Below are positions 15,754 through 47,277 of a stretch of DNA of 64,000 nt, in pieces. The stretch's first letter is position 1; every line of letters begins with the position of its first letter. This DNA comes from a virus, in the IMG/VR virus record IMGVR_UViG_3300045988_135095; one strand, 5' to 3'. The translations under genes and the position numbers were made by a program. The notes below the pieces were generated by a model. The model was not told the origin of the DNA. It did not search any database and worked only from the letters and a program-made list of their open reading frames with translations.

Positions 15754-17061
15754 TTACTCCTCAGCTTTAGCTGCGTTATCCTTGAACTCCTTCTTCTTTG
15801 TAGGAGGCAGCTCATTGTAGGCGTCAATAACCTCCTTGTCGCTGGCGTCACTAGGAAGTGTAGCACCAAGAGCGTTGAGAGTTGTGATAGCCTCCGGCTT
15901 CTTGTAGGTCACATCAGAGATTGTTACCTTAGCGTCCTCTGTATCTGCTTTCTCCTTTTCGGTATCAACCGAAACGTCTGGGTCTGCCAGCTTAGTATTA
16001 ATCTGATAGATTGTATCAACGTCCTCGATGACAGGCAAGCAGTATGCCTGCACCGCAGTAGTCTCACGCAATGGATCAGTTGTTGAATACTGAGAGATAA
16101 GCTTGTAATCAATTTGCTGATAGGTTACACCTGCCACTCTGTTGGTTGCCTCTGCTACCTGACCGTAAACGAGGGCACCAATCATCTGTGAGCAGACACC
16201 GATAATCATATCGTTGTTCCAAGGCTTAACGCTCTTCTTCACACCATCATGCTCCAAGCGGACAGTACGGTTGATGATGCGGAATGATACACCGGTCTCG
16301 TCCAAGAATGCCTCCTGGAATACGTTGGCAGTAGGAACCGGCAGCTTTGTGTTGGAGTCATAAGTCTGACCCTTATAGTTGGCAACAAGCTCACGAGCGT
16401 CCTGTGCCTTCTTCAGTTCGTCAAACTTAGCCTTACCAATCCAGAAGATCAAGATGGTGTTGCCATCATTCGATGCTCGCTCGATACATTCCTTCAAGTC
16501 AGCAACGGTAACACCATTATTGACGTTGTTGATACCAAGCTGATTTTCTGGTAAGTACTGATACGTGATGCGAAGCATCTCATTTGGCTTGTCATCGTCA
16601 CGAACAGCTACGTAGCCGTTAGAAAGACCATACAGAAGGGCGTACTCATTACGCTCATCAACACCGACATTACAAGCTACCGGGTCCTGCGCCAACTTAC
16701 GGCGAATCTCTGCTGTCTGACCGCCCTGTGCTTCCATGAGTCTGAGAGTGAGAATATCTGACTCCTTCAAGAATTTCTTCATACCGACTTTTGGCAGTTT
16801 GCCGTTGGCGGTTGAAATCTTGTCACGTGACTTCAAAGGAACCGGAGAATCCACTGCCACGTAGTCAGCAGCTACGTAAGAGGTATCAACTGTGTCGGCT
16901 TCCCATTTGTTGTCGGTAGAATAAACGCGGCGGAGAATGGATGTATCTTTGTGGAGATACGTCATCTCGTTCTTGCGCTTACCGTTAATCTTCTCAATCA
17001 ATGTCTTCAGGATTGGGAAGAAACTCAAGATATACTTAAGAAATAAAGAACTCTGTTGCAT
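15754..17061 (-). CDS. major capsid protein
   Basis: 435 aa. Follows the scaffold and a small decoration-like gene. AAGGAGGTGA lies 3 nt upstream of the ATG at 17061. Confidence 0.6.
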   Translation of the reverse strand: MQQSSLFLKYILSFFPILKTLIEKINGKRKNEMTYLHKDTSILRRVYSTDNKWEADTVDTSYVAADYVAVDSPVPLKSRDKISTANGKLPKVGMKKFLKESDILTLRLMEAQGGQTAEIRRKLAQDPVACNVGVDERNEYALLYGLSNGYVAVRDDDKPNEMLRITYQYLPENQLGINNVNNGVTVADLKECIERASNDGNTILIFWIGKAKFDELKKAQDARELVANYKGQTYDSNTKLPVPTANVFQEAFLDETGVSFRIINRTVRLEHDGVKKSVKPWNNDMIIGVCSQMIGALVYGQVAEATNRVAGVTYQQIDYKLISQYSTTDPLRETTAVQAYCLPVIEDVDTIYQINTKLADPDVSVDTEKEKADTEDAKVTISDVTYKKPEAITTLNALGATLPSDASDKEVIDAYNELPPTKKKEFKDNAAKAEE

Positions 17062-17072
17062 AAATCACCTCC

Positions 17073-17465
17073 TTAACCGATTGCATCGTGTCCCCACTGA
17101 AGAGTAGGAACGGCTGTTTTCAAAGCTGCCTTAATCGTATCGACAGGATAAGGGACAGCCTTATCATTAGCCTCACCTGCCGTCATAACACCTACATGAG
17201 GGGTATCTGCCGGAGCTGTTGTCATACAGATGCCAACATACTCGTGGCTCGCTGGCAAAGAAGCATAAGCCCCACCTGTTACAGGCATTGGCTTGTACTC
17301 GCCAGACGTAGTGTCACGAATGATAATGTGTCCGCACTGGATGAACTCTCCAGAGAAACCTGTCAAGTCAAGAACGACACCACCCATGATGCCATTCACG
17401 TAATTTCTGATGATTACAGACTCCTTGCCTGAATCATACGTTTCTGTCTTGCTTACGCCATACAT
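17073..17465 (-). CDS. small head protein (decoration / cement-like, positional)
   Basis: 130 aa gene between the scaffold and capsid genes. Confidence 0.35.
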   Translation of the reverse strand: MYGVSKTETYDSGKESVIIRNYVNGIMGGVVLDLTGFSGEFIQCGHIIIRDTTSGEYKPMPVTGGAYASLPASHEYVGICMTTAPADTPHVGVMTAGEANDKAVPYPVDTIKAALKTAVPTLQWGHDAIG

Positions 17466-17484
17466 AACTTTTAAAATTTAAAGA

Positions 17485-18180
17485 TTACATTGTTTCGGCA
17501 AGCTCATCAATCTCATTGTCCTTGATAACCTCAACCTCATCCTTCTTAGGCTTTCTCTGAGCCGCAGGAGCACCAAGTTTTCCGAGACCTTCGTTAGCAC
17601 GCTCTTGATCGATAGCTGCCAAGTCCTCCACAACACCATCGTAGAAATCATCGAACTCAGATTCGTTCTCGAACTTCATCTTGTCGAAATTCTTCAAGAT
17701 AGTCTTTCCGAACGTACCTTTGTCCTTAAGGAGTGCCTTCAGCTTAGAACGGCGGCCATCATTCTCACGCTCTGACTTCAAACCGAGGATTTCGGTCTGC
17801 AAGGCTTTGTTCTGAGTAATGAGTGCCTGCGCCCATGCTGGGACCTGCTCATCTTTCTCTCTCTTCTGTTTGCGGATTGGTTTCTTGTTGCCGGCAGGGT
17901 CATCATCATCGTCATCGACCTCGTCGTCATCCAAGTCTTGACTATCCTTAAAACTCTGGATAGTACGCTGCGCAGTCTTTTGCGCAATCTTAAGATAAGG
18001 AAGAACCGCATTGACCTGCTTTTCAATCTCTGCGTTTACATCCTCGTCTGAGGCTTCTTCATCGAGTTCTAAGTTATTGGCAACATCGGCAGCAATACCC
18101 TCTAACTCCTCTCTACTGAACCCCAACGCCTTTGATTTGGGTTTCAGAATAACTAAAACTTGCTTCGTTCTTTTTTTCAT
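17485..18180 (-). CDS. scaffolding protein
   Basis: Starts at the ATG at 18180 (MKKRTKQV). Acidic and helical, with DDDEVDDDDDD. Lies upstream of the capsid gene. The track start at 18258 is a TTG inside the promoter. Confidence 0.55.
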   Translation of the reverse strand: MKKRTKQVLVILKPKSKALGFSREELEGIAADVANNLELDEEASDEDVNAEIEKQVNAVLPYLKIAQKTAQRTIQSFKDSQDLDDDEVDDDDDDPAGNKKPIRKQKREKDEQVPAWAQALITQNKALQTEILGLKSERENDGRRSKLKALLKDKGTFGKTILKNFDKMKFENESEFDDFYDGVVEDLAAIDQERANEGLGKLGAPAAQRKPKKDEVEVIKDNEIDELAETM

Positions 18181-18255
18181 TCTAACTAAATATTTAATTG
18201 AACAATAAAATTCAAGAAATATCCCAGTACGAAGCGATAGCAATAAGTAATGCTG

Positions 18256-18287
18256 CAAAATTATAAAAAAAGTATTTAGTCACCAAA
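18256..18287 (-). promoter_or_regulatory. late structural-operon promoter TTTG-N20-TAATTTTG
   Basis: Minus strand has TATATTTG, then 20 nt, then TAATTTTGCAGC, about 70 nt upstream of the scaffold ATG. Confidence 0.5.
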
Positions 18288-18342: not shown

Positions 18343-18807
18343 TTAATCTGGATAATTGAGCTTATCCGGTCCAGCTGTGGATAGATATACGGAGAACATA
18401 TCACATAGCTCTTTTGCTCCTTTTAAGTCGTTGAGCTTGTAATTACCGCATTCCACTTCCGATGCACCTGGAATCGTCTTTGATAGCGAACAAGCCTTGA
18501 AGGCTTCTACTATCATTTCCTTTATGAGCTTTGAAGTCCACGTACCTTTAAGGATAAGATAGAAACCTGTAAGACATCCCATTGGTCCAAAATACAGAAC
18601 GGAATTGCTAAGAGGACTATCATTTCGTAGGTAGTCCGCCATCAAATGCTCTATTGTGTGCGCGACAGCAGGTGACATCATATCTTTGTTTGGCTTGCAC
18701 ACGCGAATATCGAATGTGGTAGCAGTCTCCATGCCCCATTTATCTACTCTCGAAACATAAAGACCTGGCTTCAGTTTCGTATGATCAACTTTAAAACTTG
18801 GTATCAT
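18343..18807 (-). CDS. luxS: S-ribosylhomocysteine lyase LuxS
   Basis: 154 aa. All LuxS hallmarks are present: HTIEH metal site, GPMGCLTGFY and ECGNY. Confidence 0.85.
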   Translation of the reverse strand: MIPSFKVDHTKLKPGLYVSRVDKWGMETATTFDIRVCKPNKDMMSPAVAHTIEHLMADYLRNDSPLSNSVLYFGPMGCLTGFYLILKGTWTSKLIKEMIVEAFKACSLSKTIPGASEVECGNYKLNDLKGAKELCDMFSVYLSTAGPDKLNYPD

Positions 18808-19450
18808 TCTCTAATAATTTACAAACAACACTAAATGCCTTTTCGGCAAGACTATCCCAAAAACCTGCATACTGCTCGGTCTGGTTCGGCTCCAGGGAAT
18901 TATCGCTAATAACTCGGATGGACGTAAAACCGATACCCTTCTTGTAGCATACCTGCGCGAGAGCAGCAGACTCCATGTCAATAGCACATACGTTATAAGA
19001 ATTAGGAAGAAAATCCTTAATCGCCAATACCTGCTCTCTCGTGGTGACAAACTTATCTCCCGTAGCTATAGTTCCTAGTCTGAATCTTTCATCCATATCA
19101 ATCCAGGAGAAATCAGAAGGAAAGACTGCCGGCATACCTTGAACTTGTCCATTGGCATTCGGTTCGCCGCAATATACATCGTGGTAACAGTACGAATTAC
19201 CTATTACGACATTACCTGGCTTTAAACCAGCAACGGCAGCACCTGCGCATCCTACCGAGATAACTCTTGTAACTTTGCTGGACGTATTCGACGAAAGAAA
19301 TTCTGTCAAGCAAGATGCCGCATTAACCTTGCCAATACCAGACTTGATTAAAGCTATGTTTTGAACATTTTTGTAGTCAAGCCAATTCTTTGCAATCCAT
19401 TCGCTGATAAGGTCATATTCCTTATCCATAGCGGTAACTATGACAATCAT
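18791..19450 (-). CDS. mtnN: 5-methylthioadenosine/S-adenosylhomocysteine nucleosidase
   Basis: 219 aa with VTAMDKE, SGIGKVNAA, VGCAGA, IDMESAA and RVISDN motifs. AGGAGG SD upstream. Overlaps luxS by 17 nt. Confidence 0.85.
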   Translation of the reverse strand: MIVIVTAMDKEYDLISEWIAKNWLDYKNVQNIALIKSGIGKVNAASCLTEFLSSNTSSKVTRVISVGCAGAAVAGLKPGNVVIGNSYCYHDVYCGEPNANGQVQGMPAVFPSDFSWIDMDERFRLGTIATGDKFVTTREQVLAIKDFLPNSYNVCAIDMESAALAQVCYKKGIGFTSIRVISDNSLEPNQTEQYAGFWDSLAEKAFSVVCKLLENDTKF

Positions 19451-19746
19451 TGCGCACCTCCTTTCGTTAGCTTAAGCTTCTTACAACGATTGTAAATAGC
19501 GTTTTCGTCCACTCCAATCTTGGTAGCAATGGCTTTTACCGGGTACTTGCCATACATTCTGCGAATGATGAAATCCTCATCAGCTGTAAACACGTGGCTC
19601 TTGCTGATACCCATTTCCTTCATCTTTCGATGGATGGCCCAATAATTACGATTGAGCTTCTTTGCAATCTCCGTTGTCGTCATCACCAAAGCATTAACCT
19701 TGATGAACTCAATCTCTTCTGCACTAAAATGTTTTCCTCTACTCAT
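19447..19746 (-). CDS. DNA-binding protein with two HTH-like repeats
   Basis: 99 aa with a duplicated F(S/T)AEE/DED-FI...T-EIA-K motif, which is Myb/sigma-r4-like by eye. Confidence 0.4.
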   Translation of the reverse strand: MSRGKHFSAEEIEFIKVNALVMTTTEIAKKLNRNYWAIHRKMKEMGISKSHVFTADEDFIIRRMYGKYPVKAIATKIGVDENAIYNRCKKLKLTKGGAQ

Positions 19747-20161: not shown

Positions 20162-20512
20162 TCACTTAAACTTAATGATGAAAAACTCATGATCCAACCA
20201 CTTGCCTGGGCAAAGACCTTTCTTCGGTTTACCGATGGTGATACTCTCAATCTCCTTCTCAATTCGTGGACTATACTTGCGGTAGCCATTGATGAAGAGG
20301 ACGTGAGTATAAGGTTTATATTCCAGCTTGCCTATCACGCGACAATAACCGCCAAACTCATCGAAAAGCACCTCACCGCTTTCTGCTTGTTGGTTTACCA
20401 GTCTGGAAGCCCAATATGATTTTATTTTCCGATATTCCTCAGTCTTCTCGCCAGTCACAATCTTATCAAACCATTCCTTGCTGACGGTGAGCACCAATAC
20501 TTTCTTTTCCAT
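20162..20512 (-). CDS. ASCH-domain-like protein
   Basis: 116 aa. ...WFDKIVTGEKTEEYR... resembles the ASCH fold signature (from memory). Confidence 0.45.
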   Translation of the reverse strand: MEKKVLVLTVSKEWFDKIVTGEKTEEYRKIKSYWASRLVNQQAESGEVLFDEFGGYCRVIGKLEYKPYTHVLFINGYRKYSPRIEKEIESITIGKPKKGLCPGKWLDHEFFIIKFK

Positions 20513-20518
20513 ACGCTG

Positions 20519-20752
20519 CTACTTCTTTTTATTACAAGGACAACTACTAGCGTGAATAATAACGCAAGCTCCATGTTCCCTGCCCACAAACAGGTAGTCA
20601 TGCCCTTTCTTGGTGAATATTTTTATATTAAACTCTTCTTTTTCGTGTGGAGTTCCTAAGCTGAAAGAAACTCTAAAACCTATTACGCCTATAATGAAAA
20701 TCAAAACGAGCAAACCGTATGACTTGGCTAAGTCTAAAATCTTTTTCTTCAT
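20519..20752 (-). CDS. small membrane-anchored protein
   Basis: 77 aa with an N-terminal hydrophobic helix YGLLVLIFIIGVIGF. Confidence 0.4.
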   Translation of the reverse strand: MKKKILDLAKSYGLLVLIFIIGVIGFRVSFSLGTPHEKEEFNIKIFTKKGHDYLFVGREHGACVIIHASSCPCNKKK

Positions 20753-20755
20753 ACG

Positions 20756-21139
20756 CTACTTCTCATCGAATTTGTTGCCAACGACTATGAATTTACCTAA
20801 TGAAAGATAATAACCTAACGGTTTTTCATAAATCTTTCCATTAGCATGTGTGAGGTAATACCCACTTAACTCTTCCGACCATACAATTTCTGATGGAATA
20901 AAAGGATAATTCTTGATAACATCATGTTCGTACAATTCATTGCCCTTACCGTCTGCCAGTTCACAGGACTGGCAGACGGTAGAAGGGTCAACTTCATAAG
21001 TGATATTTCTGTTCAACATACTTTCTTCCTGACGATTTTCGATGATGTAGGTGTTACCACATTCGGCATAAAAGTAACCTTCTACCCACTTACCATTGTC
21101 AAGACGTTTTGCTTTAAACTTGATATTTCCTACTTTCAT
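20756..21139 (-). CDS. YopX-like phage protein
   Basis: N-terminus IKFKAKRLDNGKWVEGYF resembles YopX-family proteins (from memory). Confidence 0.45.
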   Translation of the reverse strand: MKVGNIKFKAKRLDNGKWVEGYFYAECGNTYIIENRQEESMLNRNITYEVDPSTVCQSCELADGKGNELYEHDVIKNYPFIPSEIVWSEELSGYYLTHANGKIYEKPLGYYLSLGKFIVVGNKFDEK

Positions 21140-21142
21140 AAG

Positions 21143-21397
21143 CTATTCATATAAAATTGTTATTCTTTTACTTTTATCTACCTTCAATATAGATTCTTTT
21201 GCTTTATCGATAGAAGAAAACAAATACTCCGGGCGAAGGTTATATGCACCATAATCCCAATAATGGATAAGTCCAAATAACAACGAATGTCTCTTATCTA
21301 CACGATAAGCATATATTGGTTCATCCCAAGAATCGTAATGTATGCCTTTAACAGCCTTGCTTTTACGATACATATCTACTATTCTATAGGTTGCCAT
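21143..21397 (-). CDS. hypothetical protein
   Basis: Track ORF with ATG start, tightly packed in the early operon. Confidence 0.4.
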   Translation of the reverse strand: MATYRIVDMYRKSKAVKGIHYDSWDEPIYAYRVDKRHSLLFGLIHYWDYGAYNLRPEYLFSSIDKAKESILKVDKSKRITILYE

Positions 21398-21399
21398 AA

Positions 21400-21609
21400 C
21401 TATTTTGCTTTAACATTATATACTCCATCAATGACCTCCACCTCATAACAATCGGGACAATAGTGTTTGCCATCTATCATTTCCCAATCAGAGTAGTCAC
21501 CAATATCAACTTCTTTGTTACTGAATAGTGCAGAGCAAGTATCTGTACCGCCAAATACTCCTCCGCATCTATCGCAAACAATCTGATACATTGTAATCGG
21601 TCTATACAT
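21400..21609 (-). CDS. small zinc-ribbon protein
   Basis: 69 aa with CDRCG...CPDC. Confidence 0.4.
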   Translation of the reverse strand: MYRPITMYQIVCDRCGGVFGGTDTCSALFSNKEVDIGDYSDWEMIDGKHYCPDCYEVEVIDGVYNVKAK

Positions 21610-21612
21610 AAG

Positions 21613-21972
21613 CTATTCAACTTTTACACCGAAGGGAGTTCCGTCGGCAAATGTGAACTTTTTAAAAAGAGCTTCTAAATCACAACCATTGCCTATCACT
21701 GTTAAGTTTATTTTTTGATTGATTCCAATAGGAATCATCCATCCAAACGGCTGGTGCTTTTGCATCTCCTGCCAGCACTCTTCTTCATCCTTAAATGGGC
21801 GGTATTTTTGTTCTGGCTTGATGCGGTAATCATTATAATAAGTTACTAAATGGTCTAAACTAGCTACGTTAGTATCATACCATTCTCTATTAATTGTTTT
21901 ATGTTGTATAGTTTTGCCATCTACAATAGCCTGCAGAATAGGCATAATTTTTTTAAGATTCTTTATATCCAT
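21613..21972 (-). CDS. hypothetical protein
   Basis: Track ORF with ATG start, tightly packed. Confidence 0.4.
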   Translation of the reverse strand: MDIKNLKKIMPILQAIVDGKTIQHKTINREWYDTNVASLDHLVTYYNDYRIKPEQKYRPFKDEEECWQEMQKHQPFGWMIPIGINQKINLTVIGNGCDLEALFKKFTFADGTPFGVKVE

Positions 21973-21975
21973 AAT

Positions 21976-22113
21976 TCAATCCTCCAATTCTTTAAGCATT
22001 TCATTCAAATTCTTTTTAACTCTCATTAGTGCAGGATAACCTCTATCAGCATCAATATCTGGAATTTCTAATAAAGAGTCTTTAATTAACTCAATAGCTT
22101 TTTCTTTACTCAT
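21976..22113 (-). CDS. small hypothetical protein (45 aa)
   Basis: Manual translation MSKEKAIELIKDSLLEIPDID... GGAGGG SD upstream. ATGA overlap with the upstream ORF. Confidence 0.3.
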   Translation of the reverse strand: MSKEKAIELIKDSLLEIPDIDADRGYPALMRVKKNLNEMLKELED

Positions 22114-22286
22114 TGCTTACCCTCCTTTGCCTTTAAGTATCTTCGTTCAAAACTTTTGAACTGTCTGTTTATAGAATGAGCTTCTTCTTCAAATCCTTCA
22201 TCTAAAGTACCAGACATAGCCATAAGGGATTCTGTTGCTTGAAAGAAAGCTTCAAAGTCCTTTTCTGTTACATTCATTTTTGCCAT
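22110..22286 (-). CDS. small hypothetical protein (58 aa)
   Basis: Manual translation MAKMNVTEKDFEAFFQ..., checked codon by codon. The stop overlaps the next ATG. Confidence 0.3.
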   Translation of the reverse strand: MAKMNVTEKDFEAFFQATESLMAMSGTLDEGFEEEAHSINRQFKSFERRYLKAKEGKQ

Positions 22287-22310
22287 ATTACTATCTGATT
22301 AGTTAATCTT

Positions 22311-22439
22311 CTACAATAACCCATTTTCAGTGCAAGTGTCAATAGCTCTAATTGCTATCCAAATCGCTTGCTTCTGTTCATCGTCTGTAAGATTGCTTCT
22401 AATCTCACACAACTTTCTTTTTACTTCTGCAGCTTTCAT
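22311..22439 (-). CDS. small hypothetical protein (42 aa)
   Basis: Manual translation MKAAEVKRKLCEIRSNL... ATGA overlap with the stop of 22436..22867. Confidence 0.3.
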   Translation of the reverse strand: MKAAEVKRKLCEIRSNLTDDEQKQAIWIAIRAIDTCTENGLL

Positions 22440-22867
22440 ATTCTCTTCTTTTTACCACCTGCGAATGCTTGTGTCATGTTTATCGCAGATTTAATATCTT
22501 TGTACCTGACACCGCAAACTGTTGCCACATTTTTAATTGCCTCATCCATTTTGAATTGCCTTGCCAAAAACTGATTATTCTTTATCAAGTTGACGATTTC
22601 TTCTTTCGTGTGAATTCCTTTCCAAAATAGTTCGGTATGACTACCAACTCTGTCTTCATCTACAGAGAACGGAACACCATAATTTGTATAAAACTCTCCG
22701 TGATGCTTGATGAGATGGCGACCAGGATTCTTTCGGATATTATTTATCCAAGTTTCATTATCGCATTCGCACCACATTCCATATTCTGCCGAGGTCAGCA
22801 CTTTGTCGATGCCGATAGGATAATGACCAGAACACCCATTCGTTCCAAAATAAATAATCTCTGCCAT
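22436..22867 (-). CDS. hypothetical protein
   Basis: Track ORF, 143 aa, ATG start. Confidence 0.45.
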   Translation of the reverse strand: MAEIIYFGTNGCSGHYPIGIDKVLTSAEYGMWCECDNETWINNIRKNPGRHLIKHHGEFYTNYGVPFSVDEDRVGSHTELFWKGIHTKEEIVNLIKNNQFLARQFKMDEAIKNVATVCGVRYKDIKSAINMTQAFAGGKKKRI

Positions 22868-22920
22868 ATTCTCTCTTCTTTTTACCCTCTCCCTTTTACA
22901 GGAGAGGGTGGTTAGTTACT

Positions 22921-23184
22921 CTATCTCCAAGCGTAAATTGCTGTATAATTACCTTTGCACCCAGTATCAAGGTTATGGGAATAATAATACTTAACAGCAG
23001 CGCAATCAAATCTCCAATTGTGCTTTGCAATTAATGTGTAAACTTCACTATCTCTTGTAGCGCGCCCCTTTTCATCGAATAATGCCAAATAGAGAGGGTC
23101 ATTATCATCACATCTATATGGGTCAAACGGCTTAATGAAGTTACCATCTTTATCAAAGCAGTCTTTAATTTTCATTTTCTTCAT
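22921..23184 (-). CDS. hypothetical protein
   Basis: Track ORF with ATG start. Preceded by the conserved ATAAATAGATAGTAATATG context. Confidence 0.4.
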   Translation of the reverse strand: MKKMKIKDCFDKDGNFIKPFDPYRCDDNDPLYLALFDEKGRATRDSEVYTLIAKHNWRFDCAAVKYYYSHNLDTGCKGNYTAIYAWR

Positions 23185-23221
23185 ATTACTATCTATTTAT
23201 ATCCTCATAGAGGATAATTAG

Positions 23222-23710
23222 TTAATCTTTTTTCGGCTTAATACCCCATGCAAGGCATCCAAATCTAACATCAGTACTAATGTTTGAGCCATCAAAAACT
23301 CTCTCTTCTCCTCCAATAGACGTTAGGGTAATACCTATAGGCAATGAAGGGTAGAGATATAGCGGAATCAAACGAAGTCCAAGAGTATTTTTCTCTTTGG
23401 AAACCTTCTTATCAAATTCCTCCTTTGTAAGGTGTCCCTTGTCTAATTCAGATTGTAAACAAGAAATTTCTTCCTCAATATCTTCTTCGGATTGCCAACT
23501 TCCAAAATGTAAAGCCTTACACTGACTTTCCGTAAGAGCATTCCAATCAATGTCTTTCTTAAATTGTTCTTGAACTTTTTGCCAAGCATTATTGAGACTT
23601 TCCTTTTTAAATTCTTCGTCCCACTTTTTATATACTTGGATACACGCAATTTGATTTGCGAGCCATTTCAAAGTATTACTAACTTTGTCTTCTAATGAAA
23701 TTTGTTCCAT
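23222..23710 (-). CDS. hypothetical protein
   Basis: Track ORF, 162 aa, ATG start. Confidence 0.45.
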   Translation of the reverse strand: MEQISLEDKVSNTLKWLANQIACIQVYKKWDEEFKKESLNNAWQKVQEQFKKDIDWNALTESQCKALHFGSWQSEEDIEEEISCLQSELDKGHLTKEEFDKKVSKEKNTLGLRLIPLYLYPSLPIGITLTSIGGEERVFDGSNISTDVRFGCLAWGIKPKKD

Positions 23711-23748
23711 ATTACTTTATATTATAATCCTATAAGGATGTTTAGTTA

Positions 23749-23964: not shown

Positions 23965-23996
23965 ATTACTATCTATTTATATCCTTTGCAGGATGG

Positions 23997-24504: not shown

Positions 24505-24532
24505 ACTTCTATTATTTATGCCCCGAAGGCAA

Positions 24533-25033: not shown

Positions 25034-25067
25034 ACGCTTTGCTTCTTATGCCCGAAGGCGTTATAAA

Positions 25068-25334: not shown

Positions 25335-25336
25335 AC

Positions 25337-25732: not shown

Positions 25733-25737
25733 ACGCT

Positions 25738-25902: not shown

Positions 25903-25933
25903 ATTATTATCTATTTATGCCCGATGTCGTTAA

Positions 25934-29383: not shown

Positions 29384-29525
29384 AATCTTTTATAATTTTA
29401 ATTGGTTCAACTTATAAGGTAGGCTCTGAATAGTCAAAAGTACTACCTTTATCTATATGCAAAGGTACGAAAATTTTCTGATATATGCAAATATACCAAT
29501 GATTATTTTAGTTAAAAATACTAAA
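29384..29525 (-). repeat. 142-bp promoter/leader cassette, copy A
   Basis: Near-identical to 38778..38919 and 53058..53199. Partial copies lie at about 47340..47462 and 33541..33610. Confidence 0.8.
29460..29491 (-). promoter_or_regulatory. promoter TTTG-N20-TACCTTTG (cassette A)
   Basis: Minus strand reads TATATTTGCATATATCAGAAAATTTTCGTACCTTTG. Confidence 0.6.
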
Positions 29526-40478: not shown

Positions 40479-41004
40479 TTATCTTCTGTAATTCTTTAAT
40501 ATCATCCAAGGACAGCTTAGGGAACTTGAAGTCCTCGCCATCCTTGCCGGTTACTTCTTGAATATGCTTATCTGCCAATCCGTTGAGCCTTGCAACAATA
40601 CTGGAATCAAACTGATGAAGCATGGCGCCATCAATTTGCTGAGCCATCACGACATTCTCAATCTGTGTTATCACCTGCTCAAAGCCTGGTCTCTTAAGAT
40701 TACCTCTCTTGAAATCCGCCCATTTCTGAACGATGCCACAGAAAGCACAAAATCCGACAAGGGTATAGGCTCTTCTGAAAACCCTTACCTCTTGTCTCAT
40801 GGAATTTGTGGATTTGCCGCTGCCGCCTGCAATGGAGTTGCTACCAGTCTTTTGCTGCCAAGGGTCATTTTCAACATCATCACAGTAAGCTACAAACTTA
40901 TCCCATAATTCCTGAGAAGACTTAATCTTGTATGGTCTTCCAACAGGATTGGGGATTCTATGTACGAAAGACTTTACTTTCGGCTGTGATGATTCATCTG
41001 TCAT
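40468..41004 (-). CDS. terS: terminase small subunit
   Basis: 178 aa. GRPYKIKSSQELWDKFVAYCD is typical of small terminase N-termini (from memory). 11-nt overlap with terL. Confidence 0.5.
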   Translation of the reverse strand: MTDESSQPKVKSFVHRIPNPVGRPYKIKSSQELWDKFVAYCDDVENDPWQQKTGSNSIAGGSGKSTNSMRQEVRVFRRAYTLVGFCAFCGIVQKWADFKRGNLKRPGFEQVITQIENVVMAQQIDGAMLHQFDSSIVARLNGLADKHIQEVTGKDGEDFKFPKLSLDDIKELQKINGL

Positions 41005-41618
41005 GGTTTCTTAACTTTTACTAGTTTACCGCAAGCGGAACAATTATACTCATAATACTCTGAAGGCTTGACCTGGATATTCTCCTCAACGCCCTTCATT
41101 TCCTCCTTGAACTTCTGGTCCTTCTGGGCTTCCGTTACGACCTTCTTAGCCGTATGGTTAGTCTCAGCCTTGGAAGGTGCGGCCGCAGGTTTCTGTTCCT
41201 TTGGCTTAGCGTTGAGTCCAAGCATACCGGCAATGCTCTCATCGAAAGCAAACTGAATGCTGTTAGGATCACCGAGATAGGAGAGCTCCTTGCGAAGCTT
41301 CTTCTCGTTCCAAGTGGCAAACTCGGACGTCTTGTCATCAGCGATTCTATACTGCTTAATCTGCTCATCAGTCAGATAGTCAACACGGATGCATGGAACC
41401 TTATCCATTCCCAATGCCTTAGCAGCCTTATACACACCGTTACCGGTTACAATCACGTTGTTCTTATCAACGGAAATAGGCTGAGTGATGCCGAAATCCT
41501 TGATGGACTGCATGATTGCCTGTACTGCCGTCTCGTCGGTCTTGTGCGAACCGTCATGAGGCACGATACTGTCAATAGGTAACTCAATTACCTTGTCATT
41601 AATCTTAATCTCTTCCAT
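41001..41618 (-). CDS. ParB N-terminal-domain protein with C-terminal CxxC tail
   Basis: 205 aa. LPIDSIVPH...ITQPISVDKNNVIVTGNGVYKAA has ParB/Srx-fold character. Ends with YNCSACGKLVKV. ATGA overlap with terS. Confidence 0.6.
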   Translation of the reverse strand: MEEIKINDKVIELPIDSIVPHDGSHKTDETAVQAIMQSIKDFGITQPISVDKNNVIVTGNGVYKAAKALGMDKVPCIRVDYLTDEQIKQYRIADDKTSEFATWNEKKLRKELSYLGDPNSIQFAFDESIAGMLGLNAKPKEQKPAAAPSKAETNHTAKKVVTEAQKDQKFKEEMKGVEENIQVKPSEYYEYNCSACGKLVKVKKP

Positions 41619-41623
41619 ACCTG

Positions 41624-42259
41624 TTAATCCTCAATTTCTATTGTTTCCATATTTCCGCAATATGGGCAAACGACCTTCATATAATGTGAACCGTCCTCGC
41701 GCTCTTTGAGAACGAACAAATCCTTGGCAGGGTCCTCCTCCTCATCATCTGAAGAAGCTTCCTCGCTTTCGCCAGCCTCTTCATTGGATGGAGCCTCGAA
41801 GTTCTCCTCATCAACCTGAGAATAGTCATCCTGGAAGCCACCATACTCTTCTGCCTGCTGATTGATGCTGTCGAGGGAGAAGTTGAGCATCTGGTTGATA
41901 TCCTCAAAGAAGAATGCCTGCATATCGGTAGGAACCTCCATGTTGCGCAATTCCTCCAAAAGCTGGTCTTCATCAAAGGAAGATTTCTCTGCCAGCTTGT
42001 TATCGAGGATGCGGTACTTCTTTGCCATTTCGTCGTCCATATCCGAGTAAACGACAGGAACGAACTCCATACCCAACTGGTAAGCGGCCACGTATCTTGT
42101 GTGACCGGCAATGATTACACCTGCCTTATCAACGAGGATAGGCTTAACGAATCCAAAACGCTTGATACTCTCCTTCGTAGGCTCAACCGCATTCGTGTTG
42201 TCACGAGGGTTGTCATAGTAAGGAAAGATTTCACTGAGCTTAACTGACTTTACTTTCAT
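41624..42259 (-). CDS. ParB N-terminal-domain protein with acidic linker and C-terminal CxxC tail
   Basis: 211 aa with FVKPILVDKAGVIIAGHTRYVAA and a SEEASSDDEEED linker. Ends with VVCPYCGNMETIEI. Confidence 0.65.
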   Translation of the reverse strand: MKVKSVKLSEIFPYYDNPRDNTNAVEPTKESIKRFGFVKPILVDKAGVIIAGHTRYVAAYQLGMEFVPVVYSDMDDEMAKKYRILDNKLAEKSSFDEDQLLEELRNMEVPTDMQAFFFEDINQMLNFSLDSINQQAEEYGGFQDDYSQVDEENFEAPSNEEAGESEEASSDDEEEDPAKDLFVLKEREDGSHYMKVVCPYCGNMETIEIED

Positions 42260-42918
42260 TTCTTATCCTCCTTCTTCTTGGCTGTCTCTCTTGCTACGCG
42301 TCTCTCGTCGACAACCTTTTCGATAGCCGCATTATACTTATAGCTCTTGAAAATCTTGGCGAAACCGGTAACATACTTAAGTTTTACAAGCTCTTTCTGC
42401 TCCAGACCTACCTTTTCGCAAATCTCACGCTCAGATACACCATCTCTGAGCATATTGAAGACGATGTTTACCATTCCATCTACAGAGTGACTTCCACGGG
42501 CACGATTATGTCTTACGGTTGATGCCATACGCTGGTCGATGTCCTTGTCTAGAACTACGATAGGCAGCTTTCCGCCACATCGCTCATTGATGTCCGCAAA
42601 CTTGCGAATAACGAGGTTTCTGTGGAAACCGTCGATGATTACATACTTCTGCAGCTTCTCGTCCCAAATGGTAACGATAGGCATAGTGTAACCGTCTTCC
42701 CTCACGGATGTATAGAGAAGACGCATTTCCTTATCTGCCACATGGTTAGGGTTGTAGTTGTTGGCTACAACCATATCCTTGTCAACCCAAAGCACGCAAT
42801 CTACAGGGTTGACTTTCTCTGGAGATAAGGAACTGATATACTTTCTGAGGTCGTTCAAAAACTGCACCTTATCCTTGGCAGCATCAAACTCCTTCTTGAT
42901 GTTCTCTTGAAGATTCAT
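42256..42918 (-). CDS. IbrB-like ParB/sulfiredoxin-fold protein
   Basis: 220 aa with NYNPNHV, IIDGFHR and RHNRARG motifs. ATGA overlap downstream and a 35-nt overlap with the PP-loop gene. Confidence 0.65.
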   Translation of the reverse strand: MNLQENIKKEFDAAKDKVQFLNDLRKYISSLSPEKVNPVDCVLWVDKDMVVANNYNPNHVADKEMRLLYTSVREDGYTMPIVTIWDEKLQKYVIIDGFHRNLVIRKFADINERCGGKLPIVVLDKDIDQRMASTVRHNRARGSHSVDGMVNIVFNMLRDGVSEREICEKVGLEQKELVKLKYVTGFAKIFKSYKYNAAIEKVVDERRVARETAKKKEDKK

Positions 42919-44077
42919 ATTCCTTATTAGCTTTTTCTATTTTAACATAATTGTCGCTCAAATACTGACGCAAAGAACGCTCTACGCTCTGAATGCGCTT
43001 CATTCCGAAATCTTCCGCAATGACGCAGACAGCGCTGGTATAACCAATCTGATGTATTACGTAATCAATACACTCCTGGCAATGCCCGGCTTTAGCTACA
43101 TTCCTCTTCTTGGCAGAACGGTAGCCTTTCTTGATAGTCTCCGCATTCTTCTTGTCTTCACAAAGATTGTCTGCGAGATAATCAACGTATTCATCCCAAT
43201 CCTTGAAATAAGGTGGCAAATTGTAGCAGTATGTTGCTATTTCGTTAAATACGTGTACAGACGTATTGACGTTTGCAACTCTTCGTACCAACTTGTCGTA
43301 GAACCATGGATCCACTTCCTTAATGAAACCTAAGTCGTGGATAGCCTGCTCATGGATGAGGGAACTTACTCGGCACGCTCTGAGTGGCTTCTGCGTGAAC
43401 TGATAGTTATAAAGCTTACAGTACGGAAGCTTGTTGCTGAAGATGTAATACCATACATCATAAACCTTCCAATCCCAAATAGGGTAGAGCACCAGACTTC
43501 TCGGTGTGCCGTCTTTATAATATCCGCCACCACCTCCCCACGTAATACCTGGAAGGCACTCACCTCTAGTAAGACCCGACAATCGTGCCGGCGACTCCTC
43601 GATACGGACACCACCTAAAGTTAGGTAGTCTTTGCCGAAGAGCATTCTGTGTACCTGATCAAGGGTCTTGGAGAAATACTGATTGTGCGGAATCTCCAAA
43701 TCACCATATGAATCTGGTTCCTTCTCACGAATCCACTTTTCTCCTGGCCCCCATACATTGAACCATTCTCCCTTTGAGGCATTCCATTCCTGGAAGTATG
43801 ACTGAATCCAATACGGCTCAACCCACGGCAAGTGCATGATGTATCGTATGTACTCGATAGTCATTGGAGTCTCTGCCTCTTGGTCTAGGAAGAGGACGGG
43901 AATCTTTTCAATTCCCATCTCCTTCATAACCTCGTGCGCAAGGTTGAGAACCACGGTAGAGTCCTTTCCTCCCGACATCGTCACGACAATCTTACGCTTA
44001 CCATAAAACTCCCGAAAGATGTATCTGAATCTTTCAAGAGCTGCCTCATAAACGTTTTTGTCACTGTAAAATATCAT
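42884..44077 (-). CDS. PAPS-reductase-type PP-loop ATPase (IbrA/DndC-like)
   Basis: 397 aa with PP-loop VVTMSGGKDSTVVL and a long C-terminal extension, as in IbrA-size proteins. Confidence 0.75.
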   Translation of the reverse strand: MIFYSDKNVYEAALERFRYIFREFYGKRKIVVTMSGGKDSTVVLNLAHEVMKEMGIEKIPVLFLDQEAETPMTIEYIRYIMHLPWVEPYWIQSYFQEWNASKGEWFNVWGPGEKWIREKEPDSYGDLEIPHNQYFSKTLDQVHRMLFGKDYLTLGGVRIEESPARLSGLTRGECLPGITWGGGGGYYKDGTPRSLVLYPIWDWKVYDVWYYIFSNKLPYCKLYNYQFTQKPLRACRVSSLIHEQAIHDLGFIKEVDPWFYDKLVRRVANVNTSVHVFNEIATYCYNLPPYFKDWDEYVDYLADNLCEDKKNAETIKKGYRSAKKRNVAKAGHCQECIDYVIHQIGYTSAVCVIAEDFGMKRIQSVERSLRQYLSDNYVKIEKANKEYESSREHQEGV

Positions 44078-44529
44078 TTCTTTCTATTGTTTAATAATAC
44101 CTTGTCGCTGGAATTACTGAAATGGGTGTCAAGGTAATTCTTAAGCCTACCCATCATTTCATTATTGTTGTGGCCGCGAGCGGCATTGTGCATGATTGTT
44201 GCATATCTCAACTTCTCTTCGTCGAAGTCAACGAAGCATACAGGAACCATCTCATATCCGATGACGCAGGCGGCGCGGTATCTGTTCTCTCCGTCAACAA
44301 TCTGCATCGTCGAGCGGTTGACAACGATAGGCTGAGTAAATCCGAAATAGAGCAACGATTTGATGAGAAGGTCGAAGCTGTCTGCATCATGCGTGTTAGG
44401 GTTATAGTCATTCGGATAAATGTCATCAACCTTGACGTATTCAATATGCAACGGCTTCACCTGCTCAACCTCGATATTGTCCTTTGCCAATTTCAAGGCT
44501 AGATTTTCCTTAGAGTTTTTTGTATTCAT
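44074..44529 (-). CDS. short IbrB-like ParB/sulfiredoxin-fold protein
   Basis: 151 aa with DYNPNTH, IVDGENRY and HNAARG motifs. ATGA overlap with the PP-loop gene. Confidence 0.6.
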   Translation of the reverse strand: MNTKNSKENLALKLAKDNIEVEQVKPLHIEYVKVDDIYPNDYNPNTHDADSFDLLIKSLLYFGFTQPIVVNRSTMQIVDGENRYRAACVIGYEMVPVCFVDFDEEKLRYATIMHNAARGHNNNEMMGRLKNYLDTHFSNSSDKVLLNNRKK

Positions 44530-45252: not shown

Positions 45253-45912
45253 TTATTTAGTTACTGTCCATTCTCCACCTCGCTTGGCAATCTTGCTGAT
45301 GGCTACTGCCAAACGGTTTCTGTTCATATCGCTACCATAGAAAACCTTACCTGCGTCATAGGCTGCTTGGGCAACAAGTCCTTGACCCATGAAGAAGTCT
45401 GTGATAGAACTGAACGGAACATCCTTACAAATCTTGAACACCGCATCCCATTCATCCATACCCTGGAGCCCCCAGTCTTCTGCCTGCTTGGTGCCTTGGA
45501 TAATCCAGCACTTGCAATCTGGCTTATGATAATAGGTGTTCTCGTAGATTTTTACATGAGGAAACAGCGATTCTACCATAGGAACCAATTGGTTCTTGTT
45601 TCGATAGAAGCACTCGACGAATAGTCTGTCCGGGTTAATCTGCTCGATGCACCTCTTGATGTGGGCAACGAACTCGTCAAAATTATCAACCGGGCATTGC
45701 TTCTCCGCCTTAGTATAATACGCTTTGAGGACGCCTTTACTTCCTGCCGGGTCGATGAATACGCAATCGGCATTCTTCGAAAACTCCGGAAGCCCCAAAG
45801 TAATATCGGCAATGGTAATCTTGCTACCATTGCCTAAACTGTAAATCTCGCCTTCTGTGATGGGGTATTTATCAATACTGCCATCATAACGCAAACCTTT
45901 CTGTGATGTCAT
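45253..45912 (-). CDS. beta-class (permuted) DNA methyltransferase-like protein with DPAG in place of DPPY
   Basis: The ATG at 45912 forms an ATGA overlap. Motif-IV position reads VFIDPAGSKG. C-terminal motif-I-like FFMGQGLVAQAA...YGSDMNRNRLAVA. Confidence 0.5.
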   Translation of the reverse strand: MTSQKGLRYDGSIDKYPITEGEIYSLGNGSKITIADITLGLPEFSKNADCVFIDPAGSKGVLKAYYTKAEKQCPVDNFDEFVAHIKRCIEQINPDRLFVECFYRNKNQLVPMVESLFPHVKIYENTYYHKPDCKCWIIQGTKQAEDWGLQGMDEWDAVFKICKDVPFSSITDFFMGQGLVAQAAYDAGKVFYGSDMNRNRLAVAISKIAKRGGEWTVTK

Positions 45913-46451
45913 ACGCAATTTACTATTAAATAATTGTGATACTCTGATACGTTTTCTTCACCAAAAAGACTGCACAAGACCTTCTTTGAATAGAAAAAAT
46001 GTCTGAACTCCACATCACACTTCTCATAAGTGACCGGATGATATTTCTCCTTGTAGAACATCAAGAACTTGCGAGCCTTGCACTGCGATATTGCCAGAAC
46101 GGCATAACGGGAAAGATAAGATGGGGAACCGAACAATGCTACGATATTCTCGAAATTCCTGCAATCTAAACTCTTTCCGTCGAAAGGCTCACATACAACC
46201 CTATCCTTATAGGCTGGGTATTTGTTAGTGAACTGCTCCAACATTCCTTTACTAGGATCAATTCCTAGATATTCCTGTGGGTCGATTTTTGCAATCTCTG
46301 TCAGCAAGCCGGTACCACATCCGATGTCTAGGATTGAACCGCTGAGAGGTGGGAGCATTTGCCCCACCTCACGGTTCTCAACGAGACTCATTTCATCACG
46401 AAACAAAGTGTCGTACTTACTTGCTATTTTATCATACTGGGAATAATTCAT
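45909..46451 (-). CDS. class I SAM-dependent methyltransferase
   Basis: 180 aa with motif I ILDIGCGTGLLT. Confidence 0.7.
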   Translation of the reverse strand: MNYSQYDKIASKYDTLFRDEMSLVENREVGQMLPPLSGSILDIGCGTGLLTEIAKIDPQEYLGIDPSKGMLEQFTNKYPAYKDRVVCEPFDGKSLDCRNFENIVALFGSPSYLSRYAVLAISQCKARKFLMFYKEKYHPVTYEKCDVEFRHFFYSKKVLCSLFGEENVSEYHNYLIVNCV

Positions 46452-47277
46452 TTTCTACTGTTGCCTGTTGCCAGGTGATTTTTTTACTTGAAATGGTTAC
46501 GAAATTCTTGTGATTGTATATGTTACAATTCGGGAACATCGATTTCAACTGCATTCTGTCATAGGTGAAATGGTGCATTTCCTCGAACTCTGCAGGGGTG
46601 TAGTCATCCTTGTAGAACATAAGGCAATAATCCAAACCACTCTCGCCCAGTTTGCGGAGATACTGAGGCATGAAGTAGGAAGCGGTACCGAAAAGAGCAA
46701 CCACAACGCTGTCTGCCGACATCCATTTCTTTATCGCCTCCTCAAAAGAAATAGTAGAACATCTTCGGAAAAAACCAGAGGTCTTCTCCCTGAACTGCTT
46801 GATTGCTTTCTTGCTAGGATCAACTCCATAATACATTTCCGGCTTTATCTTGGTGAAAGCGACGAAGTCTCCGTTTCCGATGCCTGCCTCGAAAAATCTT
46901 CTGTCCTTGAACGTGAACATGATAGATTTTGCCATCACGTCCATTTCCTGATTCGAATAGATTCGCGGTACCGGCCACTCCAGGAAGTCGAACTCGTTGA
47001 AAACCTTCTGTCTGTTCAAAATCCAAGTAGTCTCGAATGGGTCACCCATCGTCCAATACTTGTAACCATCAATGTAAAGGTAAGGGAAATTATACTTCCC
47101 CCATCTTTCATGGACTCCATTGTCTCGCTGTGCGCTGACGAAGTAATAGAACTCGTCGTTTGTCAATGCGCACTTGTCTCTGTGAATGTACTCATGAGGA
47201 ACGTCTATCATTGAAGTGGCCCATTGCCACTTACAACGCTTGATGAACTCTCTGAGCTTACTGTAATCGTATTCCAT
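46432..47277 (-). CDS. methyltransferase paralog with extra N-terminal domain
   Basis: The C-terminal half (EAGIGNGDF...VVALFGTASYF...LMFYKDDY) parallels the product of 45909..46451. The N-terminal ~120 aa (WATSMIDVPHEYIHR) is unassigned. Confidence 0.5.
   Translation of the reverse strand: MEYDYSKLREFIKRCKWQWATSMIDVPHEYIHRDKCALTNDEFYYFVSAQRDNGVHERWGKYNFPYLYIDGYKYWTMGDPFETTWILNRQKVFNEFDFLEWPVPRIYSNQEMDVMAKSIMFTFKDRRFFEAGIGNGDFVAFTKIKPEMYYGVDPSKKAIKQFREKTSGFFRRCSTISFEEAIKKWMSADSVVVALFGTASYFMPQYLRKLGESGLDYCLMFYKDDYTPAEFEEMHHFTYDRMQLKSMFPNCNIYNHKNFVTISSKKITWQQATVENELFPV

Follow-up and report, generated by a model that had tools for sequence, protein, structure and literature searches.

Kieft et al. 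(2021; bioRxiv 10.1101/2021.01.05.425418) drew up a catalogue of viral genes of cysteine and methionine metabolism from IMG/VR, in which metK, mtnN, luxS, dcm and ahcY are listed as auxiliary metabolic genes (AMGs). In that work mtnN and luxS are named among the main human-associated viral AMGs, 'luxS and mtnN' are noted together on some viral genomes, and purifying selection on both genes is reported. The locus described here shares its gene families and its human-gut source with the catalogue, which is framed around sulfide production. It had been supposed in an earlier note on this DNA that carriage of both genes by a phage is not a described feature, and this has to be withdrawn, since Kieft et al. 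record both on single viral genomes. As viral metK, mtnN and luxS were already catalogued, no new category is opened by the locus; in the literature searched, no description was found of the phage family, of the fixed slot ahead of its capsid genes, or of a MetK/MtnN/LuxS cassette of varying content. Regarding the catalogue, some of its contigs, such as one of 340 kb from the rumen, may not be viral.

The closest cellular system is the chromosomal mtnN(pfs)-luxS pair of Bacteroidales (Bacteroides, Phocaeicola, Prevotella, Muribaculaceae), in which the same enzymes are encoded in the same order and orientation and in tight adjacency. As to phage genes able to feed bacterial cell-cell signalling, vibriophage VP882 carries the quorum-sensing gene VqmA. 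A further case is given by the agr quorum-sensing genes of the C. difficile phage phiCDHM1 (PMC3901668). The LuxS considered here resembles both in this capacity, but those are dedicated signalling parts in temperate phages, whereas this one is primarily metabolic, is accompanied by methyl-cycle enzymes and comes with no sign of lysogeny. SAM lyase, for its part, destroys SAM, and host methylation and restriction are thereby disabled. Phage enzymes of this kind (T3 SAMase type) are cited in PMC10600005. Both such a lyase and the cassette would manipulate the host SAM pool, in opposite directions, as the cassette would sustain SAM turnover.

In the window, that is, the whole stretch of 64,000 nt that was analysed, the two genes lie in the following surroundings:

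15754..18258, minus strand: scaffold-like protein, 130-aa protein and major capsid protein (MCP), directly downstream of LuxS (phrog_5824, phrog_38330, Phage_cap_E, phrog_29)
18256..18287, minus strand: Bacteroidetes-type promoter (TTTG-N20-TAATTTTG), matching the consensus exactly; it lies within the 162 bp that separate LuxS from the scaffold gene and presumably opens the structural (late) operon
18343..18807, minus strand: LuxS, S-ribosylhomocysteinase (EC 4.4.1.21), 154 aa (Pfam PF02664 and NCBIfam NF002604)
18791..19450, minus strand: MtnN/Pfs, 5'-methylthioadenosine/S-adenosylhomocysteine nucleosidase (EC 3.2.2.9), 219 aa (TIGR01704 and PNP_UDP_1)
19447..19746, minus strand: small HTH protein, 99 aa (phrog_323 'transcriptional regulator, D5-like', E=3.4e-21)

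Both reading frames lie precisely where the earlier note placed them and carry in translation all the motifs that it had pointed out (AMDKE, IDMESAA and RVISDN in MtnN; HTIEH, GPMGCLTGFY and ECGNY in LuxS), and the 17-nt overlap that it reported is found at 18791..18807. The HTH gene in turn overlaps MtnN by 4 nt.

LuxS exceeds, over its full length, the cut-offs of PF02664 (163.6 bits against 27; E=3.6e-48) and NF002604 (165.8 bits against 158). Residues S6, H11, H54, E57, H58, R65, C84 and C126 (B. subtilis numbering) are conserved, without any variation across an alignment of 48 sequences; among them are the metal ligands His54, His58 and Cys126, which correspond to H50, H54 and C120 in the phage protein, and the catalytic Glu57 and Cys84, which correspond to E53 and C78. 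The AF2 model (pLDDT 97.3) has a TM of 0.87 to PDB 2fqo, and its top 18 PDB matches are all LuxS (TM up to 0.87). With the cut-offs passed, the catalytic residues kept and a confident model matching solved structures, LuxS is intact.

The same holds for MtnN, which passes a curated cut-off, keeps its catalytic residues and has a confident model matching solved structures. It scores 81.7 bits against TIGR01704 (cut-off 73.8) and 109 bits against Pfam PNP_UDP_1 (E=2.4e-31), and falls short of the stricter NF004079 cut-off (115 vs 169); the models for futalosine hydrolase, PNP and AMP nucleosidase score far under their cut-offs. The equivalents of E. coli M9, E12, I50, F151, M173, E174, R193, S196 and D197 are conserved, each of these catalytic and binding residues being either invariant among 60 sequences or conserved in at least 90% of them. 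Ser76 of the E. coli enzyme, which belongs to the water-activating network, is replaced by Cys, and Phe105, Tyr107 and Pro113 of the 5'-alkylthio pocket are replaced by Glu, Asn and Gln. Taking into account that the same substitutions are found in Bacteroidales chromosomal MtnN, they are a lineage trait and not decay. About 10 residues, forming a hairpin after helix 1, are absent relative to bacterial homologues, and the AF2 model (pLDDT 91.7; TM 0.83 to PDB 4qez) is of low confidence only at residues 21-30, the site of this deletion. Every one of its best PDB matches is an MTA/SAH nucleosidase (TM up to 0.83).

Bacterial MtnN (EC 3.2.2.9) accepts MTA, SAH and 5'-deoxyadenosine. Together with a 5'-substituent pocket that is unlike that of the E. 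coli enzyme, this range of substrates could suggest that the phage protein mainly clears MTA or 5'-deoxyadenosine arising from polyamine synthesis or radical-SAM enzymes, salvaging adenine for DNA synthesis. We consider such a role very improbable, because the pocket residues are those of the Bacteroidales chromosomal enzyme, the window yielded neither radical-SAM nor polyamine genes, and LuxS always adjoins MtnN. To our knowledge, the only substrate of LuxS is SAH-derived S-ribosylhomocysteine.

Profile searches against Pfam and PHROGs identified terminase, portal, capsid, tape measure and replication genes in the window, and the pair is flanked by phage genes on both sides, with the HTH gene upstream and the scaffold and capsid genes downstream. 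PHROGs contains no family for MtnN or LuxS and gives no phage-family evidence on the two. The scaffold-like gene has its probable true start near 18180. The phage is of siphovirus type and probably lytic, with both genes sitting inside its genome, and the host of this uncultured, common gut phage is probably a member of the Bacteroidales. No tRNA was detected in the window, and no SAM/SAH riboswitch or other Rfam family was detected in the window or in MetK-bearing relatives.

The order HTH-MtnN-LuxS-scaffold-MCP is kept in all of the 80 IMG/VR loci retrieved, and LuxS-scaffold-130aa-MCP in all family loci; the HTH gene is present in nearly all family loci looked at, placed in relatives between MetK and MtnN/LuxS. 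Phylogenies place both proteins in phage-specific clades excluding all sampled chromosomal copies (bootstraps of 100/100 for MtnN and 83-98/100 for LuxS). Values of dN/dS (0.035-0.10 for MtnN and 0.03-0.11 for LuxS) are similar to that of the capsid gene, the GC content of the pair equals the phage mean, and 86 of the 87 close loci have an intact LuxS. Taking into account these clades and a dN/dS of 0.03-0.11, MtnN and LuxS are considered long-term phage genes. Judged by their sequences they are viral AMGs: cellular-type genes, with viral hallmarks on both sides, under purifying selection yet outside the core genes for replication and structure.

As regards their source, the phage MtnN clade nests within Bacteroidales-type sequences, and the phage protein shares with Bacteroidales chromosomal MtnN the motifs YHDV-xCGExN and DMES, the QYxxFW tail and Cys/Val at the E. 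coli Ser76 position. The phage gene order is identical to that of mtnN-luxS on Bacteroidales-type chromosomes, where 50 of 80 loci show the arrangement. The LuxS tree does not resolve the donor bacterial group, identity to Bacteroidales and Clostridia being alike (47-50%). Compared with the Bacteroidales chromosomal copies, identity is only 33-42% for MtnN and 43-50% for LuxS, and the phage sequences form their own clades; the phage pair also differs in its shorter MtnN, in the 17-nt overlap seen in the window, in its phage flanks and in having no dedicated promoter.

It could still be argued that the pair is host DNA, present through misassembly or contamination, or a recent passenger without function, and the records MT835691 and MT835487 show that bacterial contamination does occur in virome data. 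These GenBank/INPHARED entries ('Bacteriophage sp.') were considered as independent phages with both genes and were rejected as bacterial chromosome fragments, since their neighbouring genes encode pyruvate kinase, FtsX, an outer-membrane barrel, PTS, GH1, a histidine kinase and MatE. In the present case, identical synteny recurs across independent IMG/VR contigs, at least 80 in number, as well as several assemblies from ENA, Logan and NCBI, the clades are phage-specific, purifying selection is strong, and no LuxS closer than 55% exists in 185,579 GTDB species-representative genomes. An artefactual origin is by these observations already refuted and has next to no probability left; as phage genes lie on either side and synteny is conserved across those contigs, the pair is phage-borne, and not host DNA flanking the phage. 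Short 'phage' records from Staphylococcus, Listeria and Enterococcus hold LuxS at 31-35% identity.

For the analysis of transcription, the Bacteroidetes promoter consensus was used in place of that of sigma-70, scans for sigma-70 promoters and intrinsic terminators being uninformative (at shuffle level). The window contains 21 copies of the TTTG-N20-TAATTTTG pattern where 2.1 would be expected (about 10-fold), and 0 of 100 shuffles reach 21. The site at 18256..18287, which gives no match as a sigma-70 promoter, is matched by a promoter of its type at the equivalent place in 8 of 11 diverged relatives, and its sequence class is unlike that of the repeated early/middle promoter. MtnN and LuxS are, as the earlier note had it, the last genes ahead of the promoter presumed to head the structural operon. 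The nearest promoter upstream on their coding strand is much further away:

29435..29491, minus strand: tandem double promoter of the repeated early/middle class

From 29.46 kb down to 18.29 kb the minus strand has no other consensus promoter, and the double promoter, being the nearest, is presumed to drive a unit of about 11 kb ending with MtnN-LuxS, with which the pair would thus be co-transcribed. The earlier description of the pair as a moron, with a comparison of lysogen and cured strain in mind, is not supported for this phage. No integrase appears among the scanned ORFs of the window, and neither prophage copies nor any relative of the capsid protein were found in the 185,579 representative genomes. 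Nor does the pair form an autonomous unit, as no Bacteroidetes-type promoter of its own lies between 29.46 kb and the pair, and no terminator-like site flanks it.

The earlier note credited the phage with at least three SAM-dependent methyltransferases as sources of SAH. Two candidate SAM consumers and SAH producers can be retained:

45909..46451, minus strand: class-I SAM-dependent methyltransferase-like gene, with Methyltransf_25/12/11 matches above cut-off (Pfam)
46432..47277, minus strand: paralogue of the former (BLASTP E=3e-18)

The third, at 45253..45918, shows motif resemblance only, with no Pfam match and no meaningful PDB match. Four proteins encoded at 41001..44529 were rejected as methyltransferases, since their matches to phrog_498 ('DNA methyltransferase') span only a ParB-like N-terminal domain. 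Both paralogues are found alongside the LuxS cassette on single IMG/VR contigs, as judged by an exact-peptide search that reaches close relatives only.

In sister phages, the same slot holds MetK-HTH-MtnN-LuxS, MetK-HTH-LuxS or HTH-LuxS, so that LuxS is the invariant member of the cassette across the family, while MtnN and MetK come and go. Taking this together with the intact active sites, it is proposed that the two are functional, phage-owned genes of the activated methyl cycle which support SAM/SAH turnover in lytic growth, with the AI-2 precursor as a by-product, a reading to which we assign a probability of roughly 0.55. As for expression timing, substrate preference and benefit to the phage, we infer the following course. 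The pair, at the 3' end of a long early/middle unit and immediately ahead of the capsid/tail operon promoter, would be expressed in infection. MtnN would then split SAH, the inhibitory by-product of every SAM-dependent methylation, into adenine and S-ribosylhomocysteine, which LuxS would convert into homocysteine and DPD. In this manner SAH could be kept low, and adenine and homocysteine (the latter leading to methionine and then SAM) would return to the pools, sustaining methylation by the phage methyltransferases and supplying precursors, with DPD, the AI-2 precursor, released as a stoichiometric by-product. Hosts that already possess mtnN-luxS would gain only extra flux.

Relief of SAH inhibition had been one of two options put forward in the earlier note, the other being manipulation of AI-2 signalling. 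What makes the former fit better than deliberate signalling is a single observation, the co-occurrence of MetK, which sister phages add to the same cassette. The two class-I methyltransferase paralogues of the window and a Dam-type methyltransferase in one relative also count for methyl-cycle support. Against it count the distance of 26 kb to the one methyltransferase backed by Pfam, and the fact that LuxS, not MtnN, is invariant. As MtnN alone would suffice for SAH detoxification, any benefit must arise at or after the LuxS step, through homocysteine recycling or DPD. Frameshifts in LuxS, present in two sublineages, count against methyl-cycle support as well and indicate that the enzyme is dispensable in some backgrounds.

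The presence of LuxS in every family member, with MtnN and MetK variable, is also what would be expected if the DPD/AI-2 output were itself selected, infected Bacteroidales, mostly devoid of LuxS, being turned into AI-2 producers and so altering how neighbouring bacteria or other phages behave. LuxS is encoded by only about 17% of sequenced Bacteroidetes genomes, against 83% of those of Firmicutes, and a rise in AI-2 shifts the Bacteroidetes/Firmicutes balance in mice (PMC4856461). Moreover, 30 of the 80 chromosomal mtnN loci lack an adjacent luxS. We nevertheless regard selected signalling as unlikely: MetK in the cassette indicates SAM supply, the window shows no recognisable receptor or kinase for AI-2 and no regulator responsive to it, AI-2 yield is bound one-to-one to methylation flux, the producer cell is about to lyse, and the LuxS frameshifts again speak against it. 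Since LuxS is the fixed core of the cassette in a phylum where most genomes are without it, a related and slightly less likely proposal is that the phage installs a LuxS branch in LuxS-negative Bacteroidales, the infected cells becoming transient AI-2 sources that would couple infection to interspecies signalling and to the gut Bacteroidetes/Firmicutes balance.

The neighbourhood of the cassette in relatives brings in host defence. A variable block in the same inferred transcription unit, upstream of the cassette, encodes Tad2-like and Sequestin proteins (anti-defence-type), a dUTPase and the Dam-type methyltransferase mentioned above, and the phage encodes a GmrSD-type nuclease (Pfam). Furthermore, B. 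fragilis type III CRISPR makes the messenger SAM-AMP from SAM (PMC10600005). It could be thought, then, that the cassette tunes SAM/SAH so that phage DNA is rapidly methylated and thereby protected, or so that SAM-dependent immunity is disturbed, be it SAM-requiring restriction or the SAM-AMP signal of Bacteroides type III-B CRISPR. This is quite improbable, however, as the evidence is entirely circumstantial, the effect of MtnN, LuxS and MetK would be to raise SAM, the opposite of what phage SAM lyases do, nothing suggests an action of MtnN on SAM-AMP, and the active sites are canonical.

The phage lineage is widespread: a cluster of 98%-identical MtnN comprises 2,491 member sequences, and LuxS is found at 94-100% identity in at least 130 IMG/VR contigs. 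Should the cassette be active, a common gut phage would reprogram SAM/SAH turnover of Bacteroidales in infection, releasing the AI-2 precursor. The natural variation of the cassette, with MetK present or absent, MtnN present or absent and LuxS intact or frameshifted, offers a ready comparative series for finding the methyl-cycle step that limits phage growth.

Profile searches identify the window as the genome of a siphovirus-type phage; nearly all of its genes lie on the minus strand, in the following layout.

63 to 53 kb: replication and recombination genes
47 to 41 kb: two methyltransferase-like genes, four ParB-like proteins and a PAPS-reductase/DUF3440 protein
41 to 39 kb: small and large terminase subunits
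Following the terminase genes: ligase and GmrSD-like nuclease
29.6-32.6 kb, plus: portal and MuF-like genes
29 to 19.5 kb: low-GC block of small genes
Between that block and the scaffold gene: HTH gene, then MtnN, then LuxS
18791..19450, minus: MtnN, 219 aa; PNP_UDP_1 and TIGR01704 matches
18343..18807, minus: LuxS, 154 aa; Pfam LuxS and NCBIfam equivalog matches
18.2 to 0.2 kb: scaffold, major capsid, head-tail, tape-measure and tail genes

No integrase was found in the scanned ORFs and no tRNA in the window; a MetK-bearing relative has a tRNA gene between its head-tail genes and tape-measure region (L194 7670-7769). The portal and MuF-like head-morphogenesis genes (29583-32555, plus) lie on the strand opposite to the rest of the genome, about 11 kb from the capsid genes, with small accessory genes between, and the MuF-like protein also matches a PHROG annotated as ADP-ribosyltransferase (Bxa). 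At 33625-35373 (minus) the phage encodes a GmrSD-type restriction endonuclease (type IV, modification-dependent) of full length, with both N- and C-terminal domains, which could target rival phages whose DNA is modified. Directly upstream of the terminase, four paralogous ParB-like nuclease-domain proteins surround the PAPS-reductase/DUF3440 protein (41001-44529, minus), an arrangement that resembles IbrA/IbrB-type pairs and may serve in DNA modification or anti-defence.

The host most likely belongs to the Bacteroidales, judging from the promoter consensus, the nearest cultured relatives of TerL (Bacteroides fragilis phages, at 49% identity) and of the capsid protein (Cellulophaga and Porphyromonas phages), and the nesting of the MtnN clade within Bacteroidales-type sequences.

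An ORF check found the positions assigned to MtnN and LuxS in an earlier, sequence-only note to be exact, with both genes on the minus strand and overlapping by 17 nt. The LuxS product matches Pfam LuxS (E=3.6e-48) and passes the curated cut-off of the NCBIfam S-ribosylhomocysteine lyase equivalog (165.8 bits against 158). The MtnN product matches the PNP_UDP_1 superfamily (E=2.4e-31); at 81.7 bits it exceeds the cut-off of the MTA/SAH-nucleosidase model TIGR01704 (73.8), without reaching the stricter one of NF004079; futalosine hydrolase, purine nucleoside phosphorylase and AMP nucleosidase were rejected, with scores far under the model thresholds. Alignment to B. subtilis LuxS structures shows that Ser6, His11, the metal/catalytic HxxEH motif (His54, Glu57, His58), Arg65, Cys84 and Cys126 are retained, all invariant across 48 sequences. 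Compared with the authentic E. coli sequence, MtnN keeps Met9, Glu12, Ile50, Phe151, Met173, Glu174, Arg193, Ser196 and Asp197, which are invariant or at least 90% conserved among 60 sequences. It differs in Ser76 (Cys) and in the pocket residues Phe105/Tyr107/Pro113 (Glu/Asn/Gln), departures shared by Bacteroidales chromosomal MtnN and thus lineage traits rather than decay, and it lacks about 10 residues forming the hairpin after helix 1. Confident AlphaFold2 models (pLDDT 97.3 for LuxS, 91.7 for MtnN) superpose solely on LuxS (TM up to 0.87) and MTAN structures (TM up to 0.83), respectively.

The proposal that the pair is phage-borne is upheld. At least 130 IMG/VR contigs carry a 94-100% identical LuxS; the order HTH-MtnN-LuxS-scaffold-capsid is present in all 80 contigs fetched, and the same arrangement recurs in independent ENA, Logan and NCBI assemblies. 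The MtnN cluster at 98% identity has 2,491 member sequences, so the lineage is widespread. A search of 185,579 species-representative genomes gave no LuxS closer than 55% identity and no capsid relative. Phylogenies against chromosomal copies, a check suggested in the earlier note, gave phage-specific clades devoid of any sampled chromosomal copy for both MtnN (bootstrap 100/100) and LuxS (83/100; core clade 98/100). Pairwise dN/dS values are low (LuxS 0.03-0.11, MtnN 0.035-0.10, capsid gene 0.06-0.15), the 154-aa LuxS ORF is intact in 86 of 87 close loci, and the pair has the same GC content as the window on average (0.42). These observations together exclude the alternative that the region is host DNA flanked by two separate elements.

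The pair is not a new kind of feature. The earlier note took it to be undescribed; Kieft et al. (bioRxiv 10.1101/2021.01.05.425418) had already reported viral mtnN and luxS under purifying selection, some viral genomes with connected genes such as 'luxS and mtnN', and, in a table, both genes adjacent on one contig, and phage LuxS also appears in a 2026 anaerobic-digester study (PMC13644194). In the literature searched, no description was found of this phage family, of the fixed MtnN/LuxS position before the capsid module, or of a variable MetK/MtnN/LuxS cassette with phage-specific clades. PHROGs holds no family for MtnN or LuxS. Nor was LuxS shown in an isolated GenBank phage: the two records checked, MT835691.1 and MT835487.1 ('UNVERIFIED: Bacteriophage sp.', human faeces), are bacterial chromosome fragments in which mtnN/luxS are host genes, neighboured by pyruvate kinase, FtsX, an outer-membrane barrel, PTS, GH1, a histidine kinase and MatE.

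The phage gene order copies a standard host pair: MtnN as query retrieved 80 chromosomal loci, chiefly from Bacteroides, Phocaeicola, Prevotella and Muribaculaceae, and in 50 of them luxS comes directly after mtnN on the same strand. Identity to chromosomal copies is low (MtnN at most 42%, LuxS at most 50%), and the LuxS tree did not resolve the donor group. Within the phage family the cassette recombines: sublineages with capsids 95-97% identical can have LuxS at 85% and MtnN as low as 57%, the two alleles being shuffled independently.

Matches to the Bacteroidetes promoter consensus TTTG-N17-23-TAnnTTTG number 21 in the window, with 2.1 expected, and nearly all lie in intergenic gaps on the coding strand. 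The late promoter placed at 18256..18287 by the earlier note is an exact match in the 162-bp gap after LuxS, with predicted promoter function, and 8 of 11 relatives have one at the equivalent place. Each early/middle gene block is headed by a nearly identical repeated element of about 57 nt comprising two overlapping promoters of this type (TATATTTGCATATATCAGAAAATTTTCGTACCTTTGCATATAGATAAAAGGTAGTACTTTTG). This element appears to represent a promoter class peculiar to the phage and separate from the pre-capsid one.

Tandem double promoter, Bacteroidetes consensus, minus: 29435-29491, 33553-33610, 38828-38885, 47409-47466, 53108-53165
Single promoter copies, minus: 56560-56591, 62798-62829

From 29.46 kb down to the pair, the coding strand has no consensus promoter, and scans found neither a terminator-like site flanking the pair nor a riboswitch. 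Thus, MtnN and LuxS would be the last genes of a unit of about 11 kb driven from 29.4 kb, which, from its layout, looks to be expressed ahead of the structural genes. This arrangement does not fit a moron that a prophage would express from a promoter of its own.

The most informative result is the variation in cassette content. The same structural module recurs in more distantly related members of this clade of phage LuxS, with a different cassette.

MetK-HTH-MtnN-LuxS: L194, L198, L383
MetK-HTH-LuxS: L192, L193, L200, L203
HTH-LuxS alone: L196 and others

In a census of 98 unique loci, with sampling skewed towards near relatives of the queries, HTH-MtnN-LuxS accounted for 77, HTH-LuxS for about 10, MetK-HTH-LuxS for 4 and MetK-HTH-MtnN-LuxS for 2. 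LuxS is therefore the constant gene in the loci sampled, MtnN and MetK being variable, and these contents make the slot before the scaffold gene an activated-methyl-cycle island (SAM synthesis, SAH hydrolysis, SRH cleavage). Two sublineages have independently acquired a frameshifted LuxS: L007/P0034 (L007 5819-6214) through a 1-nt deletion changing HLMADY to HLMG, its truncated-product cluster having 7 member sequences, and L380-L382 (L380 10650-11290) through an indel in an A7 run common to three NCBI assemblies. Genuine pseudogenes, slippage-prone sites and sequencing errors are all candidate explanations; barring the last, LuxS would be dispensable in some settings.

Distant putative viral contigs (L202, the 102-kb IMGVR_UViG_3300012016_000699, and L294-L297) carry LuxS in other arrangements, either MtnN-LuxS-MetK (43% identity) or a lone LuxS (37%). 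Upstream of the cassette, the low-GC (0.32-0.40) small-gene block at 20500-29400, compared with L002, L003, L192, L193, L196 and L380, differs strongly between otherwise near-identical phages; matching blocks in relatives encode Tad2-like and Sequestin proteins (both of anti-defence type), a Dam-type methyltransferase, a dUTPase, PNK3P and YopX. The block thus seems to be hypervariable, with accessory and counter-defence functions.

The best-supported reading of the pair, to which we give a probability of roughly 0.55, is that it augments the methyl cycle while the phage grows lytically. MtnN would remove SAH, a product inhibitor of methyltransferases, LuxS would regenerate homocysteine, and MetK, where present, would remake SAM; adenine would be salvaged and DPD/AI-2 released as a by-product. 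As for SAM consumers, the 'three or more' methyltransferases claimed earlier reduce to one class-I enzyme with Pfam support (45909..46451) and a neighbouring 281-aa paralogue (E=3e-18), the third showing motif resemblance alone; PHROG 'DNA methyltransferase' matches on four other proteins covered only a ParB-like domain, and scans of the window found no radical-SAM enzyme. In the window's sublineage, methyltransferase and cassette share the same contigs, and one relative has a Dam-type methyltransferase in its variable block. Counter-defence through SAM/SAH pools is speculative and improbable; it is hinted at by the anti-defence-type neighbours in relatives and by the use of SAM-AMP as a signal in B. 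fragilis CRISPR (PMC10600005).

A role in AI-2 signalling is unlikely, yet stays alive: LuxS is encoded in only about 17% of Bacteroidetes genomes (PMC4856461) and 30 of the 80 chromosomal mtnN loci have no adjacent luxS, so the phage may supply a step that many hosts lack. What sits least easily with methyl-cycle augmentation is that the constant gene is LuxS rather than MtnN. This places the selected step at SRH cleavage or beyond it, with the benefit coming either from recycled homocysteine or from DPD.
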